From an uncultured Gammaproteobacteria bacterium (lineage in GTDB: Bacteria; Patescibacteriota; Microgenomatia; UBA10105; UBA927): 47,586 nucleotides of DNA. Shown here one piece after another: positions 12,891 to 47,415 of the stretch (the stretch's first letter is position 1; the number at the start of each line of letters is the position of its first letter). Below the pieces are notes generated by a model. The model ran no database searches and was not told the DNA's origin. It saw only the letters and a program-made list of their open reading frames with translations. A program made the translations under genes and the position numbers. The DNA lies in NCBI GenBank assembly GCA_964588145.1, contig CAZPNL010000003.1:1-47586 (forward strand), given 5' to 3'.

Positions 12891-14237
12891 ATGACCATAC
12901 TGAAACGAACACGCTTTTTATATTGGCTCATCGCTGAGTTTGGGAAAAAATACGCTAAATCCATAGGTATAGGGGTGCTTGTGGGATTAGTTGTTATGGT
13001 ACTCTTTTGGTATTTTGCACCACAAGTTGCTATTTCACTTTTTTCACCAGTGGAGCGTATAGGCGTCGTAGGACAATTTACTCCAGCTACTGTGCCACTC
13101 TATGTCCAAAAAGATGTGAGTTTTGGACTTACAAAAATTTCTGATGACGGCACCGCCACAAAAGGTTTCGCTGAAAGTTGGGAAGCGACTGATAGTGGTA
13201 AAACGTATATATTTTCACTTCGTAAAGATCTCGCGTGGCATAACGGTGATCCAGTAACGGCTCGAGACATAAATTACAATATCCGCGATGTAACATTTGA
13301 AGTCGTTGATGATCATACAATTATAGCCAAGCTCTTAGATCCTTATAGTCCATTTCCAACGCTTGTCTCAAAGCCTATCTTTCGCAAAGGTTTATTGGGG
13401 TTTGGAGAATATAAAGTGATCAATTTACAGCTCAAAGGCGATACGATTGAGTATCTCAAGCTAGAACCTCTTGATCCCAAAAAGATCATGAGAGAATATA
13501 GATTTTATCGAAATGAATCTGAAGCAGTAGTTGCATTTAAGTTAGGGGATATAGATGTCGTTTCCGACATATCAGATCCGTCACAATTGGCAGGTTGGAA
13601 AGGTGCTATCGTTGAAAAAAGTATACGATTTGACAGAGTAGTTGCGCTTTTTTTCAACACTCTTCAAGGTCGTATGATAGACAAAAGCGTTCGTCAAGCT
13701 CTCGCCTACGCGCTTCCAAAAGAATATCCAGGAGATCAAGCGTTCGGACCTATAGCGTCTAAATCCTGGGCATATACAGATAAAGTTCGTCATTATAGTC
13801 AAAATCTTCAACTTGCTAAAAAAACACTCACTGGTTCACCATTGGCATCTACGAGTGCGACCCTTACATTGTCTACATTTCCATCGTTTGAATCAGTTGC
13901 AAATTCTATAGCAGCATCATGGAATAATATAGGCATAGGGACACAAGTGAAGCTAGAAAATTCCCTTCCCTCAGATTTTGAAGTTTTTCTCTCAGCCCAG
14001 ACAATCCCTCCAGATCCTGATCAGTATCCTTTTTGGCATTCAACTCAGTCTCAAACCAATATCACAGGTTTTACAAATGTCAAAATTGATAAACTGCTTG
14101 AGGATGCCAGACGTGAGACAAATATTGAGAAACGTAAAAAGCTCTATGCAGATTTCCAGAGGTTCCTCGTTGAGGAAGCACCAGCAGTATTTCTCTACTA
14201 TCCACCAAGTTACACAATTCGCAGGGCGAGCAGATAG
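12891..14237 (+). CDS. ABC transporter substrate-binding protein, family 5 (OppA/DppA-like), N-terminal TM
   Basis: AESWE...YIFSLRKDLAWHNGDPVTARD motif; C-terminal DKLLEDARRETNIEKRKKLY. Confidence 0.85.
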   Translation: MTILKRTRFLYWLIAEFGKKYAKSIGIGVLVGLVVMVLFWYFAPQVAISLFSPVERIGVVGQFTPATVPLYVQKDVSFGLTKISDDGTATKGFAESWEATDSGKTYIFSLRKDLAWHNGDPVTARDINYNIRDVTFEVVDDHTIIAKLLDPYSPFPTLVSKPIFRKGLLGFGEYKVINLQLKGDTIEYLKLEPLDPKKIMREYRFYRNESEAVVAFKLGDIDVVSDISDPSQLAGWKGAIVEKSIRFDRVVALFFNTLQGRMIDKSVRQALAYALPKEYPGDQAFGPIASKSWAYTDKVRHYSQNLQLAKKTLTGSPLASTSATLTLSTFPSFESVANSIAASWNNIGIGTQVKLENSLPSDFEVFLSAQTIPPDPDQYPFWHSTQSQTNITGFTNVKIDKLLEDARRETNIEKRKKLYADFQRFLVEEAPAVFLYYPPSYTIRRASR

Positions 14238-14248
14238 TGTATAATTTT

Positions 14249-14310
14249 AGTCTCACTTGCTATTTTGAGACAGGCCAAAGGAAATTGGCAAAATAGCATA
14301 GTGAGACTTA
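14249..14310 (+). ncRNA. Candidate long-hairpin small RNA
   Basis: AGTCTCACT-TGCTATTTTG pairs with CAAAATAGCA-T-AGTGAGACT around a 21-nt apex; TATAAT at 14240-14245 directly upstream. Confidence 0.4.
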
Positions 14311-14483
14311 TCCCGTCCAGTGACGGGGTTAGTAAGTTATGTTATATCAAACCAAAGGAAATTGGCAAAATAGCATAGTGAGACTTATCCCGTCCAGTGA
14401 CGGGGTTAGTAAGTTATGGTATATCTAACCAAAGGAAATTGGCAAAATAGCATAGTGAGACTTATTCCGACTTTAGTCGGGGT
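14275..14483 (+). repeat. 77-bp tandem repeat, about 2.7 copies
   Basis: CCAAAGGAAATTGGCAAAATAGCATAGTGAGACTTAT starts at 14275, 14352 and 14429; each copy is followed by a small hairpin. Confidence 0.95.
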
Positions 14484-14501
14484 GATAAAAAAAGTTAAAA
14501 A

Positions 14502-14587
14502 GCCCAGATGGTGAAATTGGTAGACACGCTAGCTTCAGGAGCTAGTGACCGTAAAAAGTCTTGGGAGTTCGACTCTCCCTCTGGGCA
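14502..14587 (+). tRNA. tRNA-Leu(CAG)
   Basis: GCCCAGA/TCTGGGC acceptor, CTAGC-TTCAGGA-GCTAG anticodon arm, long variable arm. Confidence 0.93.
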
Positions 14588-14600
14588 CATAATTAGCCAA

Positions 14601-14763
14601 TGGGAGGTTCGCCCCGTGCATGTTAGTTACGACTAACGGGGCGCCCCCTACAAAAAAATACAACCAGAAGGGGCGAATCCTCTTCTGGGCACTTATCAAA
14701 ATTGGGAGTAAACCCCGCTTCCTTTGAAATATCTAAAGCGGGGTCGACTCTCCCTCTGGGCAC
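14601..14763 (+). pseudogene. Degenerate 3'-half copies of tRNA-Leu(CAG), two with hairpin inserts in the T-loop
   Basis: 14702-14763 = TTGGGAGT + 34-nt CCCCGC...GCGGGG hairpin + TCGACTCTCCCTCTGGGCAC; further relics at about 14601-14650 and 14664-14692. Confidence 0.8.
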
Positions 14764-14851
14764 AAATAAGACGAAAGACTAAAGACGAAAGACAAAAGTT
14801 AGATGAATTGTTTAATTTTATAGCATAATATTTTGCTCGATACGAAGACAA

Positions 14852-15226
14852 ATGACCTACAAATTTGAAAAACTTGAAGTATGGACAAAGTCGAAGGAAT
14901 CGTTAAAGAATATTTATATTCTTTGCAATAAAATGCCTAAAAGTGAGGAAAGAAATCTAATTGATCAATTGCGTAGATCAGCCACATCAATTCTTTTAAA
15001 TATCGCTGAAGGAAGTGGAGCCGAAAATGATACAGAATTTAAGCGTTATTTACAAATAAGTAGAAAATCACACTTAGAGTGAGTTGCTATTCTTCTACTT
15101 ATACAAGATTTATATGGCTTTGATATAGAAAAAGAACTAGCTCAATTAGAAGAGATTGGCAAAATGCTTCACGGTTTAGTACAATACTTATCATCGGAAG
15201 CAAAAAGTACTAAATTAAGCAAATAG
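14852..15226 (+). pseudogene. Four-helix-bundle (23S rRNA IVP/Avd-like) gene interrupted by in-frame TGA
   Basis: FEKLEVW...DQLRRSATSILLNIAEG; TGA at 15080-15082, then the frame continues VAILLLIQDL...IGKMLHGLVQYL to TAG at 15224-15226. Confidence 0.8.
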
Positions 15227-15346
15227 CTTGTAATATATTTAATTACAAATTGATATATAATTATTTACTTATTGATCTCAAGTTTTCGATATTAAATTTT
15301 GTTTTTTAGTCTTTGGTCATTAGACGTTAGACTTAAGTCTTAAATT

Positions 15347-15471: not shown

Positions 15472-15531
15472 GAGGTTCACCCCGCTTTATATAATTCAGT
15501 TGAAGCGGGGCAAAAGTCCTCTCGTCCGCAC
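15472..15531 (+). pseudogene. 3'-end copy of tRNA-Leu(GAG) with 35-nt hairpin in T-loop
   Basis: GAGGTTCA + CCCCGCTTTATATAATTCAGTTGAAGCGGGGCAAA + AGTCCTCTCGTCCGCAC. Confidence 0.85.
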
Positions 15532-15718
15532 AAATGGTAGTTTGTGCACTACTATGACGTGTTTGATCTCTGAGGTTTATTTTGTGCATAATTAGAGCTC
15601 AAAGCAAAATACCTCGCACCTTTGATATATACAAACGGGGCACCCCGCTTTATATAATTCAATAGAAGCGGGGCAAATGAGTCGTTTTGTAAACATATAA
15701 AAGTTGAATACATAATTA

Positions 15719-16009
15719 TTGAAATCAATGATATATAATTTAGTATTTCCTATACTGCTATCACTGTTAATGACCTATTTAGGCATCGATTGTATTATCG
15801 AATACTTTCGGGGGAATGGAATTTCAGTTGATTTTAGATGGTATTTATCTCCGTTATGGCTCAGACAGCAATATTATGTTCCAGTTAAATATATAAAAGT
15901 TAAACCAAAAAAGTCTGAAAGAGTTACCTTACTGATTTTGGCAATAGGAAGTTTTTGCATTGCAGCAGTAGGTATATATTCGATTTTCATTCTTATCCAA
16001 AATAAATAA
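15719..16009 (+). CDS. Hypothetical 2-TM membrane protein
   Basis: 96-aa ORF with two hydrophobic segments; no recognised family. Confidence 0.55.
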   Translation: MKSMIYNLVFPILLSLLMTYLGIDCIIEYFRGNGISVDFRWYLSPLWLRQQYYVPVKYIKVKPKKSERVTLLILAIGSFCIAAVGIYSIFILIQNK

Positions 16010-16076
16010 GTAATTCACAAAAGTGTAATTACACACGTTCAACGAGATTTGGTAACTTATTAGAATCACTTTATCT

Positions 16077-16136
16077 GAAGTTCACCCCGCTTTTTATATT
16101 TCAGTTGAAGCGGGGCAAGAGTCCTCTCGTCTGTAC
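16077..16136 (+). pseudogene. Second, more degenerate tRNA-Leu(GAG) 3'-end copy with the same 35-nt hairpin insert
   Basis: GAAGTTCA + CCCCGC...GCGGGGCAAG + AGTCCTCTCGTCTGTAC. Confidence 0.75.
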
Positions 16137-27439: not shown

Positions 27440-27492
27440 GACGATTAGCTCAGATGTTTACCCCGAAAGCGTAAGCTTTTTGGGGGTAGAGC
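27440..27492 (+). pseudogene. 5'-half copy of tRNA-Val with 29-nt hairpin in D-loop
   Basis: GACGATTAGCTCAGATG + TTTACCCCGAAAGCGTAAGCTTTTTGGGG + GTAGAGC. Confidence 0.8.
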
Positions 27493-27519
27493 AAAAAAAT
27501 TAACATACAAGCATGATAA

Positions 27520-31103: not shown

Positions 31104-31172
31104 TGCGGGGTCGTTCAATGGTAGGTCCCTTATATTCGCATTCGCTCATATAAGGGATTAAAAACACTTGCC
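31104..31172 (+). pseudogene. 5'-half relic of a tRNA-Gln with hairpin insert after the D-loop
   Basis: TGCGGGGTCGTTCAATGGTAGG + TCCCTTATAT...ATATAAGGGA insert + ACACTTGCC. Confidence 0.75.
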
Positions 31173-31193
31173 ATCTTTGGTCATGTGTGGCGC

Positions 31194-31265
31194 TGCGAGG
31201 TCGTTCAATGGTAGGACACTTGCCTTTGGAGCAAGGTATTCTTGGTTCGAATCCAAGCCTCGCAG
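31194..31265 (+). tRNA. tRNA-Gln(TTG)
   Basis: TGCGAGG/CCTCGCA acceptor, CTTGC-CTTTGGA-GCAAG. Confidence 0.93.
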
Positions 31266-31282
31266 CGCTGCACAGGACAAAT

Positions 31283-31349
31283 AAGGTATTCTTGGTAAGC
31301 CCCGCTTCAATATAAATAAATAATGCGGGGACGAATCCAAGCCCCGCAG
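31283..31349 (+). pseudogene. 3'-half relic of a tRNA-Gln with ~35-nt hairpin in T-loop
   Basis: AAGGTATTCTTGGT + AAGCCCCGC...GCGGGGA + CGAATCCAAGCCCCGCAG. Confidence 0.8.
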
Positions 31350-42066: not shown

Positions 42067-42149
42067 CGGGATGTAGTTCATCGCAAGCTGGCGGAGGCTA
42101 GAATGGGACGTCAAACGTCCCTATCGCGTTAGACGCGATGCACACTTTG
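42067..42149 (+). pseudogene. 5'-half relic of tRNA-Pro with two hairpin inserts
   Basis: CGGGATGTAGTTCA[15 nt]GGCTAGAATG[35 nt double hairpin]CACACTTTG. Confidence 0.8.
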
Positions 42150-42193
42150 TTCCGTAATTTTTACGAAATTATAATGCTATTGAAAGATTTAGT

Positions 42194-44513: not shown

Positions 44514-44861
44514 ATGTCAAATTCATCAAAAATACTTTCCTTAGCCTCAATAGGAATTGGTGGTATCTGTACGATTACAAGTTTACTTTTTTACTTCATT
44601 GTTTCATCTAAGATTCAAAGTATGTATGCGGACTTTGGAATCGCTTCAAAATCTCAAGCAGTATCTAGCACTTTGCACGGAATATTATTTTTGCTTGGTA
44701 TAACTGATATAGGAGTTGGAATAGTATCTATGAGGTGGAGAAATCAGCCTAAACAATTTATCTATTTACCACTTGTATGTACGGCTGCATCAATCTTGCT
44801 TTTTGGATATATTTTATCTGGACTGATGTTATCAGCCATATCTCCACTTAATTCTTTATAA
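44514..44861 (+). CDS. Hypothetical 3-TM membrane protein
   Basis: 115 aa hydrophobic ORF. Confidence 0.6.
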   Translation: MSNSSKILSLASIGIGGICTITSLLFYFIVSSKIQSMYADFGIASKSQAVSSTLHGILFLLGITDIGVGIVSMRWRNQPKQFIYLPLVCTAASILLFGYILSGLMLSAISPLNSL

Positions 44862-45232
44862 GTTCAAATATACCATTAATTTTCTCTTAAGTTTGACCTG
44901 TTATAATTATACAGTGTTATCTGAGTTAAAATGAGGTTGCTATTGGATACATAATAATTAATTTCAAGGCACAATACGTTATCGGAATATTCAGGGGAGC
45001 ATAGCATTTTTATCTCGCTAAAACGAGATTTATAACCAAAAAGCAGTATAATGTTAATAGATTCACATAGCATGCCCCGTCTCTGACGGGATTAACAAGT
45101 CTGCCTCGCTTTGACGAGAATGAGGGTCAAGGCGGGTAGAGCACCCCGTAAATTCGGGTATAAAAATGAATACTAAGTTCTCGCCCCGTTGAAACGGGAT
45201 GTCGAGCCGGTAGATTATATAATTATTAGGAA

Positions 45233-45293
45233 GCTCTCATAGCATGCCCCGTATGTGACGGGGTCAACGGATAGAGCAACCCGTAAATACGGG
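45233..45293 (+). pseudogene. 5'-half of a split tRNA-Arg-like gene with hairpin insert
   Basis: GCTCTCATAGC[ATGCCCCGTATGTGACGGGG]TCAACGGATAGAGCA; D-loop GGA (A20) is typical of Arg. Confidence 0.75.
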
Positions 45294-45308
45294 ATTAAAT
45301 ATAAAATT

Positions 45309-45380
45309 GTTCTCGTAGCTCAATGGATAGAGCAAGCCCCTTCTAAGGGTTAGATGAGAGTTCGATTCTCTCCGAGAACG
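45309..45380 (+). tRNA. tRNA-Arg(TCT)
   Basis: GTTCTCG/CGAGAAC acceptor, AGCCC-CTTCTAA-GGGTT. Confidence 0.92.
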
Positions 45381-45391
45381 CATATTGAGGA

Positions 45392-45433
45392 ATTTACGGG
45401 GAGGTTGCAGGTTCGATTCCTGCTGGGAGCGCA
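45392..45433 (+). pseudogene. 3'-half of the split tRNA-Arg-like gene
   Basis: AGGTT-GCAGG-TTCGATT-CCTGC-TGGGAGC-G; TGGGAGC pairs with GCTCTCA at 45233. Confidence 0.8.
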
Positions 45434-45435
45434 TG

Positions 45436-45589
45436 AGAAGAGTTTAGTGATTAGAGTTTAGAAAGAAGCTTAGAAGCTTAGTTCTGCCGTTTGTCGTTTG
45501 AAGTTTGAGGTTTGAAGAATGATGAATTTCGAGTTTCGCCTGCCGGCCGTAGCCCTGCCTGACGGCAGGCAGGCCTGGCGAAGGCTGGG
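45436..45589. repeat. Heptamer arrays followed by nested CCTG-headed palindromes
   Basis: TTAGAAG/TTTGAAG/TTTCGAG arrays; CCTGCCGGCCGTAGC[CCTGCCTGACGGCAGGCAGG]CCTGGCGAAGGCTGGG. Confidence 0.7.
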
Positions 45590-45699
45590 GCTTCGATTGT
45601 CGGTAGGAAAATTTTCATTTACGAAAATCCGATTGTTAATATTGTTTAAAAGATTTCACTAATTATGATCAAACTTCGTCTATTAATAAAAAGTCTTTC

Positions 45700-47415
45700 A
45701 TGAAAAAATGCATCCTGCTTATCTTATGCATATTGTTTATTTTTCCCACTAATTGCATTGCCCTCTACGACCCACTTTCACGAGAGAACAATAAATACGG
45801 CATACATCTGGCTGACCCAAACGATATTGACGACGCTGCTGATCTCGTAAATAGTAGTGGTGGTAGCTGGGGATATGTAACAATCGTCATCCCCGAAACA
45901 GATCGTAATACAGAAAAATGGCAAGAACGATTTAATCTCCTCAGAAGAAAAAAATTGATTCCTCTTGTACGATTAGCAGGTGAAGCCAGAGGACCGCTGT
46001 GGATGCCTCCTTCTGATACGAGCATCAGAGACTGGGTAACTTTTCTAGATAGTCTCAACTGGCCAACAGAAAATAGATACGTCATACTTTTCAACGAGCC
46101 TAATCATGCGAAAGAATGGGGAGGGATACTTGATCCCGAAGGATATGCAAATATCTTTGTGCAACTGGCAACAAAGTTAAAAGAACGTAGTGAGGATTTT
46201 TACATACTTCCCGCAGGGTTAGATATGTCTGCCATATCAGATGGCGCGAGCCTGGAGGGTTCAGAATATCTGCGTAGGATGATTAGATACAAACCTGAAA
46301 TAGTAAAACTCATGGATGGTTGGAATTCGCATAGCTATCCAAACCCAGCCTTTTCTGGCTCTCCCATAGCCCGAGGGAAGGGTACAATTGCAAGTTTTCA
46401 GTGGGAATTAGATTACCTGAGACAATTAGGTCTTCAAAAAAATCCATTTCCAGTTTTCATCACAGAAACTGGATGGGTCACGACGGGAGGGAAAAACTTT
46501 ATCCCTGGCTACTATACGAGCGATATGGTAGGCACGTTTCTCACACAGTTATCAAATGGACTCTGGCAAGATAATCGGATCGTAGCTATTACTCCCTTTG
46601 TCTATTCCTACCAAGATGTACCATTTGATCACTTTTCATGGATCAAATTTGGCTCACGGGAGCTATATCCACACGCACTTATATATCAAAGCCTGCCTAA
46701 AGTAAACGCAAAACCAAAGATACGACATTCATATCAACTTTTAGATACACTAATACCTGACAAACTTGTAGTTGATTCAACCTATACTCTGTCAGGACGA
46801 GTAAAAAATACAGGTCAAGCCATCTTATCGAGTAGATCAGGCTATCAACTCGCACTTTCGAGTCAAAATGGTGAAATAAGCTATATCGCAGAGTCTGTAC
46901 CTGATATGGAGCCAGGGTCAGAAGGCGTATTTGTATATCACATCAAAACTCCGCAAAAAGTAGGTCAACAGGAAATCATTGCTTCTCTCGTCGGTGGAGG
47001 AGAAGAACTTGTGTTAACCAAAAAAACAGTATCTGTGGTGCCCCCACCATCACTGACAATTAAAGTTCAATTGGGATTTCGTGCCACTTCAAAGGCATCA
47101 GATGTGAGTGTCATCGTCTATGATGGGGATGCAATCGTACATAAATTCGAAGGCCTAGAGGTCAATTCTGGAATGCTTTACGTCACTGGTCTGACAAACG
47201 TCGTACCTGGGAAAATATACAGAGTCGTAGCTCTTGTACCATACTACCTCCCAAGACAAGAATTTGTCACTATAGCCCCTGAAAATACCCAGATCACGCT
47301 TAAAAGGTTCTGGCCATTTGACTACAATCGCAATGGCAAAGCTGAAATTGGAGATTTTGTGAGCGCTATGCAGCTTCCACCACGCAATGTCGTTGGTCTT
47401 TTTACCAGTAAATAA
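45700..47415 (+). CDS. Exported glycoside-hydrolase-like (clan GH-A) protein with C-terminal Ig-like and dockerin/EF-hand-like motif
   Basis: Signal peptide; LFNEPNH and FITETGW spaced like GH-A catalytic glutamates; DYNRNGKAEIGDF near the C-terminus. Confidence 0.7.
   Translation: MKKCILLILCILFIFPTNCIALYDPLSRENNKYGIHLADPNDIDDAADLVNSSGGSWGYVTIVIPETDRNTEKWQERFNLLRRKKLIPLVRLAGEARGPLWMPPSDTSIRDWVTFLDSLNWPTENRYVILFNEPNHAKEWGGILDPEGYANIFVQLATKLKERSEDFYILPAGLDMSAISDGASLEGSEYLRRMIRYKPEIVKLMDGWNSHSYPNPAFSGSPIARGKGTIASFQWELDYLRQLGLQKNPFPVFITETGWVTTGGKNFIPGYYTSDMVGTFLTQLSNGLWQDNRIVAITPFVYSYQDVPFDHFSWIKFGSRELYPHALIYQSLPKVNAKPKIRHSYQLLDTLIPDKLVVDSTYTLSGRVKNTGQAILSSRSGYQLALSSQNGEISYIAESVPDMEPGSEGVFVYHIKTPQKVGQQEIIASLVGGGEELVLTKKTVSVVPPPSLTIKVQLGFRATSKASDVSVIVYDGDAIVHKFEGLEVNSGMLYVTGLTNVVPGKIYRVVALVPYYLPRQEFVTIAPENTQITLKRFWPFDYNRNGKAEIGDFVSAMQLPPRNVVGLFTSK

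Follow-up and report, generated by a model that had tools for sequence, protein, structure and literature searches.

How does a complete tRNA gene come to lie between the two halves of another tRNA gene? The question is raised by a tRNA-Arg locus in the window analysed here (the whole stretch of 47,586 nucleotides), which belongs to a fragmented metagenome-assembled genome of 139 contigs, 89% complete, from a member of the Patescibacteria with a tiny genome. A first-pass annotation, made from the letters alone, had described an intact tRNA-Arg(TCT) nested within the split halves of "a different tRNA-Arg-like gene", flanked by inverted repeats and preceded by more degenerate 5' relics, and had read the whole as the product of repeated hits on one tRNA-Arg locus, possibly with replacement of one isoacceptor by another. 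Analysis of the sequence, ARAGORN and Rfam results and predicted fold finds the nested structure and all of its described elements in place (Table 1); what they are and how they arose is the subject of what follows.

Table 1. Features of the tRNA-Arg(TCT) locus, in window coordinates
Feature	Position	Strand	Basis
TATAAT, -10-like box, 8-9 nt upstream of unit A; duplicated counterpart of the 45218-45223 box	45047-45052	+	
Unit A, degenerate tandem duplicate	45061-45183	+	Pairwise alignment, sequence reading
Hairpin CCCCGTTGAAACGGG, exactly at the unit A/unit B junction; absent from unit B	45184-45198	+	
TATAAT, 9 nt upstream of shell base 1	45218-45223	+	Sequence reading
Shell 5' half, resident tRNA-Arg(TCT) positions 1-26 (acceptor 5' strand and D arm)	45233-45278	+	G011 identity, fold
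Left inverted repeat CCCGTAAAT	45280-45288	+	Sequence, fold, repeat statistics
AT-rich insert spacer, 15 nt	45294-45308	+	Sequence reading
Inner intact tRNA-Arg(TCT)	45309-45381	+	ARAGORN; 68 bits against Rfam tRNA (gathering score 29)
Right inverted repeat ATTTACGGG	45392-45400	+	Sequence, fold, repeat statistics
Shell 3' half, positions 44-73 (variable loop AGGTT, T arm, acceptor 3' strand, discriminator G)	45402-45431	+	30/30 against G011

The inner gene has a canonical cloverleaf with a 7-nt anticodon loop and exceeds the Rfam threshold, as a functional tRNA should. The interrupted gene around it, which we call the shell, reads GCTCTCA-TA-GC[ATGCCCCGTATGTGACGGGG]TC-AACGGATA-GAGC-A in its 5' half and AGGTT-GCAGG-TTCGATT-CCTGC-TGGGAGC-G in its 3' half. 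Its acceptor strands still pair at 7/7 positions and its T stem at 5/5. Bases 11 and 12 of its D stem are separated by the clean insertion of a 20-nt hairpin (45244-45263), and in place of its anticodon loop there is an insert bounded by 9-bp inverted repeats. When the outer halves are joined, a check that the first-pass annotation had proposed, ARAGORN does return a cloverleaf, though without a valid anticodon (it reports tRNA-???, with (atat) or (aa)). With a discontinuous D stem and no anticodon-bearing loop the shell is dead and cannot decode. The inverted repeats at the ends of the insert are perfect over 9 bp, whereas the 95th percentile for randomly paired flanks from 19 comparable loci is 7 bp. 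The CCCG of CCCGTAAAT and the CGGG(G) of ATTTACGGG may be the 5' and 3' strands of the shell anticodon stem; CCCGTAAAT also makes a mini hairpin (45280-45293) with the adjacent ACGGG (45289-45293), and a direct repeat, TACGGG, which lies within the right inverted repeat and at 45288-45293, flanks the insert. The shell anticodon loop cannot be cleanly recovered, unlike that of the metagenome locus L048 described below, so the exact break point is uncertain. Within the insert the inner tRNA is flanked by 15 nt on one side and 10-14 nt on the other, and no ORF lies there.

The identity of the shell is where the earlier reading must be revised. The 56 retained shell bases match the intact tRNA-Arg(TCT) of G011, a relative from a related genus, at 55/56 positions (25/26 in the 5' half with the hairpin removed, and 30/30 in the 3' half), and the seven best shell matches are all TCT tRNAs. 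This same tRNA is the best match of both halves, which bears on the possibility that they derive from two different genes: judged from these alignments they are two pieces of one gene, the resident tRNA-Arg(TCT), and not of another isoacceptor, and with a 55/56 match to G011 the resemblance of the outer halves to a tRNA gene is not due to chance. The same assignment follows from position, since the gene order Leu(TAA)-Pro(TGG)-Gly(TCC)-Arg(TCT)-~570-aa protein-His(GTG) is kept in relatives, whose tRNA-Arg(TCT) in this slot is uninterrupted; a clean gene at the syntenic position in turn means that one allele has been replaced by another with the same anticodon. These relatives, as classified in GTDB, are all of other genera, none of them a sister genome that could show an empty or intermediate site, and the closest homologue of the neighbouring ~570-aa protein is only 52% identical. 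Weaker matches of the outer 3' half in other relatives proved to be the 3' ends of tmRNA and not tRNA-Arg. The inner gene agrees with the shell at 46/56 positions, with the differences paired in the acceptor and T stems, and its own best relative is the TCT gene of another genome, G014 (63/72). The suggested isoacceptor replacement is not supported, as the two alleles share an anticodon. The other Arg genes of the assembly have the anticodons CCT, TCG and CCG, and neither an ACG nor a GCG gene was found in it. The inner gene is the sole TCT gene that ARAGORN finds in the assembly, and AGA makes up 22% of the Arg codons in long ORFs, so it is predicted to be essential.

The degenerate relics upstream are real as well. 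Positions 45036-45200 align with 45208-45320, an alignment that runs across the shell 5' half as far as the GTTCTCG that begins the inner gene, and unit A accordingly holds a shell 5' half with its D-stem hairpin (45072-45091), the arm hairpin (45144-45158) and, after the spacer, inner-gene bases 1-7 (45177-45183); because it includes these 7 nt, the duplication must be later than the insertion. Aligned with unit B, the upstream unit has two private insertions. Unit A carries a 37-nt one (45097-45133) of the GCCTCGC..AGGCGG hairpin family, members of which are also found in tRNA relics elsewhere in the genome (C8:7216 and C31:12972) and in two of the nested loci considered below (L035 and L089). 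The local hairpins include CCCCGT..ACGGGG and GTCCCGCC..GGCGGGAC, and the motif CCCGT..ACGGG occurs 7 times in the window against 0.05 expected. The resident gene has thus been split by one insertion, ~172 bp of the locus were later duplicated in tandem, and small hairpins have gone in at least four times, a history that bears out the earlier notion of repeated hits on one tRNA-Arg locus. The TATAAT box upstream of the shell is likely the resident tRNA promoter and, on its position, probably now drives the inner tRNA; a promoter scan gives overlapping weak promoter-like sites at 45189-45218. Its counterpart upstream of unit A aligns with unit B and is weak evidence of a promoter, being absent from the list of the consensus promoter scan, and a TATAAA 3 nt before the start of the inner tRNA appears too close to serve as a promoter of its own.

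Could duplication of this sort have made the whole locus? Copies of the gene might have arisen by slippage or unequal crossing-over, the flanking ones then being truncated and acquiring REP-like hairpins and the middle one diverging. Tandem duplication certainly operates here (units A and B) and at other tRNAs of the genome, and at one metagenome locus (L103) the inner and shell alleles are identical. We nevertheless think a purely local rearrangement improbable. To arrive at the nested geometry, three copies and a matched pair of deletions would be required, and the shell halves pair with each other and not with the inner gene. Moreover, it is the dead shell that is nearly identical to an orthologue from another genus, while the functional inner gene differs from it at 10/56 positions and has compensating stem changes; a conserved dead shell around a diverged functional gene is the opposite of what decay predicts.

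The reading that we favour, and believe to be probably correct, is that the locus is the fossil of a small whole-tRNA replacement cassette that lacked a nuclease gene. The anticodon arm of the tRNA-Arg(UCU) gene that the cell had inherited vertically would have been opened, and a segment of ~108-121 bp bounded by inverted repeats would have entered there in a single step, bringing another allele of tRNA-Arg(UCU), complete and oriented like the resident gene. A single step is suggested by the lack of an ORF in the insert and by the behaviour of the possible chimeras, since joining the inner 5' part to the shell 3' part breaks the anticodon stem and the reverse chimera has two acceptor mismatches. 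The insert has no convincing promoter of its own, and the inner gene would most likely be transcribed from the resident promoter and its tRNA freed by the usual 5' and 3' tRNA processing enzymes. From then on loss of the insert would be lethal, and it would therefore be locked in. After the insertion (the order is that given by the alignment) ~172 bp, from the promoter to inner base 7, were tandemly duplicated, and further small GC-rich hairpins subsequently landed in the dead copies.

The minimum-free-energy fold of 45233-45432 contains the outer acceptor stem, the D-region hairpin, a 9-bp helix around the inner cloverleaf and the outer T arm, with a z-score of -3.16 (0/200 shuffles fold as well). 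The shell helices thus close around the inner cloverleaf, and the shell is almost unmutated outside the insertions, so one might suppose that the composite functions as RNA, its 7-bp acceptor and 9-bp helices forming a scaffold for processing or stabilisation, or that it makes a two-piece tRNA-like RNA such as a decoy or primer. Several results make this highly doubtful: pairing between leader and trailer is no general feature of the tRNAs of this genome (mean -9.7 kcal/mol, against -9.1 for mismatched pairs, among 41 tRNAs), the differences between units A and B break hairpin pairs without compensation, and an Rfam scan of the locus finds no family that matches the composite. Nor is there a tRNA splicing endonuclease (PF01974) among the genes of this 89% complete genome, a family that the same search detects in four archaeal control genomes. 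The last point matters also for a comparison with the intron-containing, split and permuted tRNA genes of archaea (reviewed in PMC4390854). As in those genes, the interruption falls in the anticodon loop or beside it, and the segment between the halves has complementary sequences at its two sides; unlike them, the locus belongs to a bacterium that lacks the endonuclease, its junction is a continuous 9-bp helix with no 3-nt bulges and no bulge-helix-bulge, its D stem is broken too, and its joined halves have no anticodon. A relaxed ARAGORN search of the genome with introns allowed gave only implausible calls with very long introns and no missing tRNA that is present only in interrupted form. 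A group I intron was also considered and rejected, since no Rfam Intron_gpI match was found in 44900-45650 at E values up to 10 and the insert is ~120 nt, most of it tRNA, where such introns have ~200 nt or more.

Arg(TCT) is not the only tRNA affected in this genome, which has at least three nested loci, the others being at Gln(TTG) and Leu(CAA). Same-strand fragments of themselves (at least 10 nt) lie within 350 bp of 21/42 tRNAs, compared with ~10% for random segments, and inverted fragments near 3/42. The 2.4% of the genome that adjoins tRNAs contains 39/126 of its CCCG..CGGG hairpins, and tandem arrays of 85, 77 and ~150 bp are found at other tRNAs. The hairpin family CCCCGCTT..GCGGGG is found at ~11 sites in this genome, and a survey of 200 genomes from its class gives 0-2 sites per genome. 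In the explanation that we favour, small palindrome-associated cassettes probably bring about a turnover of tRNA genes across the whole genome, of which the Arg(TCT) locus is one example, and at some other places in the genome such cassettes carry a mini GIY-YIG nuclease gene. In an assembly as fragmented as this one it might be asked whether the assembler simply concatenated tRNA-Arg(TCT) alleles of two strains. This is very improbable, because hairpin insertions, inverted repeats and a diverged 172-bp duplicate are not products of an assembler, and because the same architecture is seen at other tRNAs of the genome and in independent assemblies.

In species genomes a strict two-D-arm pattern is matched by only 4 loci, one of which (L035, on a Patescibacteria contig) is a clearly nested Arg-TCG, and there are 8 nested loci among the metagenome matches, all of them cargo-free with inserts of ~100-150 nt. 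At three nested loci (L048, L057 and L076) joining the shell halves restores the cognate tRNA; for L048, an Arg-TCT, the sole join that works is between anticodon bases 35 and 36, and L057 and L076 hold two Thr(GGT) alleles nested reciprocally, each within the other. Not every nested locus has strong inverted repeats at its flanks. At L089 a whole tRNA-Val is enclosed by CCCCGTTAGAT and ATCTAACGGGG, repeats in the style of those at the Arg(TCT) locus.

Anticodon loops of tRNAs are reportedly classic integrase targets (Williams 2002), and a further possibility is that a large integrative element or prophage with its own tRNA-Arg(TCT) integrated in the anticodon loop and then suffered deletions that spared only the essential tRNA; the 6-nt TACGGG repeats on either side of the insert could be its common core. 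Integrative elements that target tRNA genes regenerate the 3' end of the gene, and anticodon-loop and T-loop sublocations of their integration sites are known. Our locus resembles theirs in its tRNA gene target, its breaks in loop-coding parts and the partial tRNA copies left behind. It differs in that a complete tRNA lies between a 5' and a 3' relic, whereas such elements exchange only the 3' part, a lone 3' relic being left on the far side of a large island, and in having neither a recombinase nor a cargo ORF within the insert. The underlying logic is documented for mycobacteriophages: in the tRNA-dependent lysogeny of actinobacteriophages the prophage disrupts an essential host tRNA gene without rebuilding it (Guerrero-Bustamante & Hatfull 2024, PMC10865867). 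Here too the shell is dead and its anticodon is now provided by the inner gene alone, but those cases involve a whole prophage, a tyrosine integrase and a common core of ~10 bp, and the present one ~108-121 bp with only a tRNA and no integrase nearby. We regard descent from a large element as unlikely. Beside the inner tRNA there remain only the short, ORF-free flanks given above, and the assembly's only two tyrosine recombinase genes (PF00589 matches) are on other contigs, C8 and C24. Since all 8 nested metagenome loci are cargo-free, near-perfect trimming would have had to happen repeatedly, and reciprocal nesting of two alleles is a better fit to small cassettes.

If the replacement cassette has no nuclease gene, what might move it? 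The genome has ten mini GIY-YIG genes, encoding single-domain proteins of 80-99 aa that match UPF0213-type structures. Copies lie inside the relic structures of tRNA-Tyr (C73) and tRNA-Ser(GGA) (C7), and others adjoin tRNA-Lys(CTT) and tRNA-Glu(CTC). A tblastn search of 44800-45750 with these ten proteins gave only noise, so that no GIY-YIG gene or remnant is present at the Arg(TCT) locus, and none was found in 81 metagenome loci (462 kb in total). In fungal mitochondria, mobile endonuclease ORFs of the Allomyces atp6 type carry a replacement for the gene segment that they displace. The GIY-YIG ORFs at tRNA-Tyr and tRNA-Ser(GGA) are in just this arrangement, and the Arg(TCT) locus likewise has a foreign copy of the broken gene beside the resident relic; it differs in having a tRNA gene as its target, in the replacement of that gene as a whole and in the lack of an endonuclease ORF. 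The Ssn family of single-domain GIY-YIG ssDNA nucleases is associated with NTS/SRM hairpin repeats (Chenal et al. 2025, PMC11893778, where tRNA is nowhere mentioned), and the present genome similarly combines many short GC-rich hairpin repeats with its ten or so single-domain GIY-YIG proteins. Unlike the Ssn systems, however, it has UPF0213-type structural matches, and the published SRM consensus, with 11 genomic matches where shuffled sequence gives 4-6, shows no enrichment and has no match in 45001-45650. The hairpins beside the GIY-YIG genes are of other sequence families than those of the locus.

As for the spread of the cassette, we propose that a nuclease acting in trans, or taken-up DNA, would break the loop-coding part of a resident tRNA gene, and that repair would copy in the cassette-bearing allele, for which the shell halves would give homology. 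More broadly, and as a tentative proposal that we put at rather below even chances, Patescibacteria may harbour a class of very small mobile cassettes, as yet undescribed, in which short inverted repeats enclose one whole tRNA gene. These would home into a loop-coding site of the cognate resident tRNA gene (in many cases between bases 35 and 36 of the anticodon), kill it, borrow its promoter and become indispensable. The small GC-rich hairpins of the dead shells would be empty versions of the same element, the spread would be driven by nucleases specific for hairpins or other structures, for example the mini GIY-YIG proteins, and the outcome would be a continual horizontal turnover of tRNA alleles. 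No account of a tRNA gene lying within the relics of a gene for that tRNA turned up in a full-text literature search, whose coverage leaves out most subscription journals. Usually tRNA genes are regarded as passive sites at which large mobile elements land. Here the site itself was destroyed, and a complete tRNA gene took over from it on an insert little larger than the gene that it carries; such nesting occurs at several tRNAs of one genome and on unrelated metagenome contigs, including two mutually invading alleles. The unit, if mobile, would be among the smallest gene-carrying selfish elements known. The proposal, if true, would account for discordant tRNA alleles in ultra-small bacteria and for the "pseudo-tRNAs" that tRNA finders report around real genes in such genomes, and it would suggest what a portion of the mini GIY-YIG proteins and hairpin repeats, both abundant, may be doing. 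For annotation, shell halves and hairpin-bearing fragments should not be called genes or introns.

The hairpins themselves recall REP/REPIN sequences with their RAYT transposases, MITEs and the Rickettsia palindromic elements, which are also short hairpin repeats that multiply within one lineage. The genome has five Y1-transposase genes (PF01797); unlike those of the REP/RAYT systems, they are flanked by palindromes unrelated to the locus hairpins, for example AAGGTCGGACCTT. Unlike other small palindromic repeats, the hairpins of this locus have tRNA-derived sequence around them, and within one of them there is a whole tRNA gene.

In the window, part of a 1.55 Mb, 139-contig assembly of a Patescibacteria bacterium, ARAGORN finds 11 tRNA genes, among them a tRNA-Arg(TCT) at 45309-45381 that scores 68 bits with the Rfam tRNA model (gathering score 29). 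The first-pass annotation saw this gene as lying between the split halves of another tRNA gene, and sequence, ARAGORN, Rfam and folding confirm that arrangement at exactly the positions in the table; we call the outer halves the shell and the enclosed gene the inner gene. When the 200-nt locus is folded, an outer acceptor helix encloses the whole, a 9-bp helix surrounds the inner cloverleaf, and the outer T arm is present (z-score -3.16 against shuffled sequences).

Nested tRNA loci and GIY-YIG reading frames (bare coordinates are window positions; C-numbers are contigs of this genome)
Feature	Position	Remarks
Shell 5' half	45233-45278	GCTCTCA-TA-GC[20-nt hairpin]TC-AACGGATA-GAGC-A
Left inverted repeat	45280-45288	CCCGTAAAT; between shell 5' half and inner gene; perfect match to right repeat
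Right inverted repeat	45392-45400	ATTTACGGG; between inner gene and shell 3' half; perfect match to left repeat
Shell 3' half	45402-45431	AGGTT-GCAGG-TTCGATT-CCTGC-TGGGAGC-G
tRNA-Gln(TTG) nested shell	31104-31349	Complementary acceptor halves
tRNA-Leu(CAA) nested shell	C8	Complementary acceptor halves
GIY-YIG ORF	C73:4580-4965	Between hairpin-bearing tRNA-Tyr(GTA) 5' relic and intact gene; ORF runs into tRNA 5' end
GIY-YIG ORF	C7:24040-24500	Between two copies of tRNA-Ser(GGA) 5' part
GIY-YIG ORF		Directly upstream of tRNA-Lys(CTT)
GIY-YIG ORF		After tRNA-Glu 3'-relic array

The shell is a dead gene: ATGCCCCGTATGTGACGGGG interrupts its D stem between bases 11 and 12, the insert stands in place of its 7-nt anticodon loop, and ARAGORN recognises a cloverleaf with no valid anticodon in the joined halves. 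The outer four pairs of the 9-bp helix, (A)CCCG/CGGG(G), may be the surviving shell anticodon stem with its loop replaced, and the insert is flanked by a direct repeat, TACGGG (45288-45293 and 45395-45400).

With its hairpin removed, the shell matches the intact tRNA-Arg(TCT) of the relative G011 at 55 of 56 retained bases; both halves match this single gene, so they come from one ancestral gene, and TCT tRNAs account for all seven of the shell's best matches among relatives. In four other relatives the 3' half has weaker matches, and these proved to be the 3' ends of tmRNAs. Gene order agrees: contigs with the closest homologues (52% identity) of the 571-aa protein encoded downstream have Leu(TAA)-Pro(TGG)-Gly(TCC)-Arg(TCT)-protein-His(GTG) in the same order as the window, with the tRNA-Arg(TCT) uninterrupted, and Gly(TCC) adjoins Arg(TCT) in G011 as well. 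The inner gene is identical to the shell at 46 of 56 positions over their common parts; in the acceptor and T stems the differences are paired, and the closest match of the inner gene is the TCT gene of another relative, G014 (63/72). By these comparisons we take the shell to be the resident tRNA-Arg(TCT) and not another isoacceptor, so the suggestion that a "different" tRNA-Arg-like gene had undergone isoacceptor replacement does not hold; since the inner gene is a diverged TCT allele, one allele has apparently been replaced by another with the same anticodon. The other Arg genes in the assembly are CCT, TCG and CCG, so the inner gene is the sole TCT gene and, as AGA makes up 22% of Arg codons in long ORFs, should be essential. 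In this 89%-complete, partly masked assembly no tRNA-Arg(ACG or GCG) gene was found, yet 42% of the Arg codons in long ORFs are CGT or CGC; nor were tRNA genes for Met, Cys, Ile(GAT) and Thr(TGT) found in it.

Further changes followed the nesting. The stretch 45036-45200 aligns with 45208-45320. What the two share is a TATAAT box, the 5' half of the shell together with the hairpin in its D stem, the arm hairpin, a spacer and GTTCTCG; these last 7 nt are the first of the inner gene, so the 172-bp tandem duplication is later than the nesting. Afterwards the upstream copy acquired two more insertions: in its D loop, 37 nt belonging to the GCCTCGC..AGGCGG hairpin family, and, at the junction of the duplication, a CCCCGTTGAAACGGG hairpin. 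The splitting insert, the duplication and the hairpin insertions thus bear out the earlier idea of repeated hits on one tRNA-Arg locus. A two-step origin, with separate replacement of the 5' half and of the 3' half, is unlikely when reasoned from the sequences, because in either chimera the anticodon stem would be broken or the acceptor would contain two mismatches; the insert would instead have arrived in one step. The TATAAT at 45218-45223 lies 9 nt before shell base 1 and the insert's own TATAAA just 3 nt before the tRNA; the inner gene is probably transcribed from the resident promoter. Holding the sole tRNA for AGA, the insert would be locked in.

Nesting recurs in this genome at tRNA-Gln(TTG) and tRNA-Leu(CAA) (table). 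At the Gln locus the inner acceptor is TGCGAGG/CCTCGCA and the shell halves are TGCGGGG.../...CCCCGCA, with the break near positions 37/38 and hairpins in the D region and T loop. A same-strand fragment of itself (at least 10 nt) lies within 350 bp of 21 of the 42 tRNAs, and an inverted one near 3 of 42, where about 10% of random 75-nt segments score. GC-rich hairpins occupy D-loop, anticodon-arm and T-loop positions in the tRNA fragments, and the 2.4% of the genome that is no more than 400 bp from a tRNA contains 39 of the 126 CCCG..CGGG hairpins. The CCCCGCTT..GCGGGG hairpin family has about 11 sites here compared with 0-2 per genome in 200 genomes of the same class, so it has multiplied in this lineage.

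Beyond this genome, the Patescibacteria contig L035 carries a tRNA-Arg(TCG) shell that has hairpins in its D loop and, in its anticodon loop, an entire tRNA-Arg(TCG) bounded by inverted repeats. Metagenomes were scanned for T loops that have another variable loop and T arm within the next 20-50 nt. Of the 81 matches, 19 consist of an intact tRNA with a 3' relic after it and 8 are nested; the inserts of the nested loci are about 100-150 nt long and carry a tRNA and no other cargo. When the shell halves are joined, the cognate tRNA is recovered in locus L048 (Arg-TCT), where the sole working join is between anticodon bases 35 and 36, and in L076 and L057 (both Thr-GGT). The latter two, on unrelated contigs (Ga0172380_10148631 and Ga0066639_10007678, respectively), hold the same two Thr(GGT) alleles in opposite nesting order, with the insert within the anticodon in each: identity is 63/72 between the L076 shell and the L057 inner gene and 66/72 between the L057 shell and the L076 inner gene, whereas within L076 it is just 53/72 between shell and inner gene. 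In L089 a whole tRNA-Val lies between CCCCGTTAGAT and ATCTAACGGGG, repeats in the same style as those of the Arg locus and its small shell hairpins. The relative G027, of another family, has a tRNA-Arg(TCT), a GC-rich hairpin and a 3' relic (variable loop to 3' end) with a 19-nt T-loop insertion (L012, 1498-1705), so the habit reaches another family of the same order.

Thus, a resident tRNA gene has been split by an insert bearing a working copy of the same isoacceptor, duplication and hairpin insertions came later, and the pattern recurs. An archaeal-type intron is ruled out or made improbable by the joined halves having no anticodon, by the lack of a bulge-helix-bulge and by the absence of a splicing endonuclease from the genome; a group I intron, by the shortness of the insert and the lack of an Rfam match; and an integrase island, by an insert with no ORF in a genome whose two recombinase genes lie elsewhere. 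We somewhat favor the view that the locus is a clear, if partly decayed, example of a whole-tRNA replacement cassette. Spread could begin with a break in a loop-coding part of a resident gene, after which an allele bearing the cassette would serve as the repair template and its shell halves would provide the homology; this is the most economical proposal, although our confidence in any particular mobilisation mechanism is low. Mitochondrial endonuclease ORFs come with a substitute for the gene end that they displace, and are close to the nested Arg locus in logic. Closest among documented systems is tRNA-dependent lysogeny: the prophage disrupts a tRNA gene of the host and provides a tRNA gene of its own (PMC10865867). 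In full-text literature searches no account was found of a tRNA gene lying inside a relic of its own kind, and the cassette appears to be an undescribed variant of the known "break it and replace it" elements.

The genome has ten single-domain GIY-YIG ORFs of 80-99 aa (UPF0213 type), four of them beside tRNA genes or relics (table); at tRNA-Ser(GGA) the T loop of the upstream copy is filled by a hairpin and the downstream copy enters sequence masked with N. No nuclease remnant is present at the nested Arg locus, and none of the 81 metagenome loci has a GIY-YIG gene. The pairing of hairpins with mini GIY-YIG genes recalls Ssn nucleases and their NTS repeats (PMC11893778), but membership failed a motif test, the published Ssn-related motif not being enriched in the genome. 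Five Y1-transposase (PF01797) genes (on C49, C37, C25, C4 and C58) are each flanked by long GGTCGGACC / CAAGGTTCGACCTTG-type palindromes, a REP/RAYT-like system separate from the tRNA-associated hairpins; the hairpins beside the GIY-YIG and Y1-transposase genes belong to families other than those of the locus.

About 100 nt downstream of the shell is a GC-rich palindrome (45535-45585; CCTGCCTGACGGCAGGCAGG within TTCGCC..GGCGAA). The CCTGCCTGCC/GGCAGGCAGG motif has 34 matches genome-wide, most of them distant from tRNAs, and related CCTGCCCGCC/GGCAGGCGGG ends bound the nested cassettes of L035, L048 and L076. At 14230-14765, a tandem array of three 77-bp units, all with a CCCGTC..GACGGG-type hairpin at the end, precedes tRNA-Leu(CAG), and two tRNA-Leu 3' relics with interrupted T loops follow it, one holding a double hairpin (CCCCG..CGGGGCG and CCCCCT..AGGGGCG) that also interrupts the T loop in relics following tRNA-Arg(TCG) (C3:54690-54860, on the window's contig) and the other a 34-nt CCCCGC..GCGGGG hairpin. 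Between this array and tRNA-Leu(GAG) is a small ORF (14860-15230), which by eye we presume to be a candidate relative of the four-helix-bundle protein of 23S rRNA intervening sequences. The 3' end of tRNA-Leu(GAG) is repeated at 15472 and 16077 (within 15472-16136), and the T loop of both repeats contains a hairpin of about 35 nt; this hairpin also stands alone at 15643-15673, and a small ORF lies in between. Directly upstream of their intact genes are 5' relics of tRNA-Pro(TGG) (42067-42150, ending in the anticodon loop) and tRNA-Val(TAC) (27440-27495, ending at position 26), both with hairpins inserted in or after the D loop.
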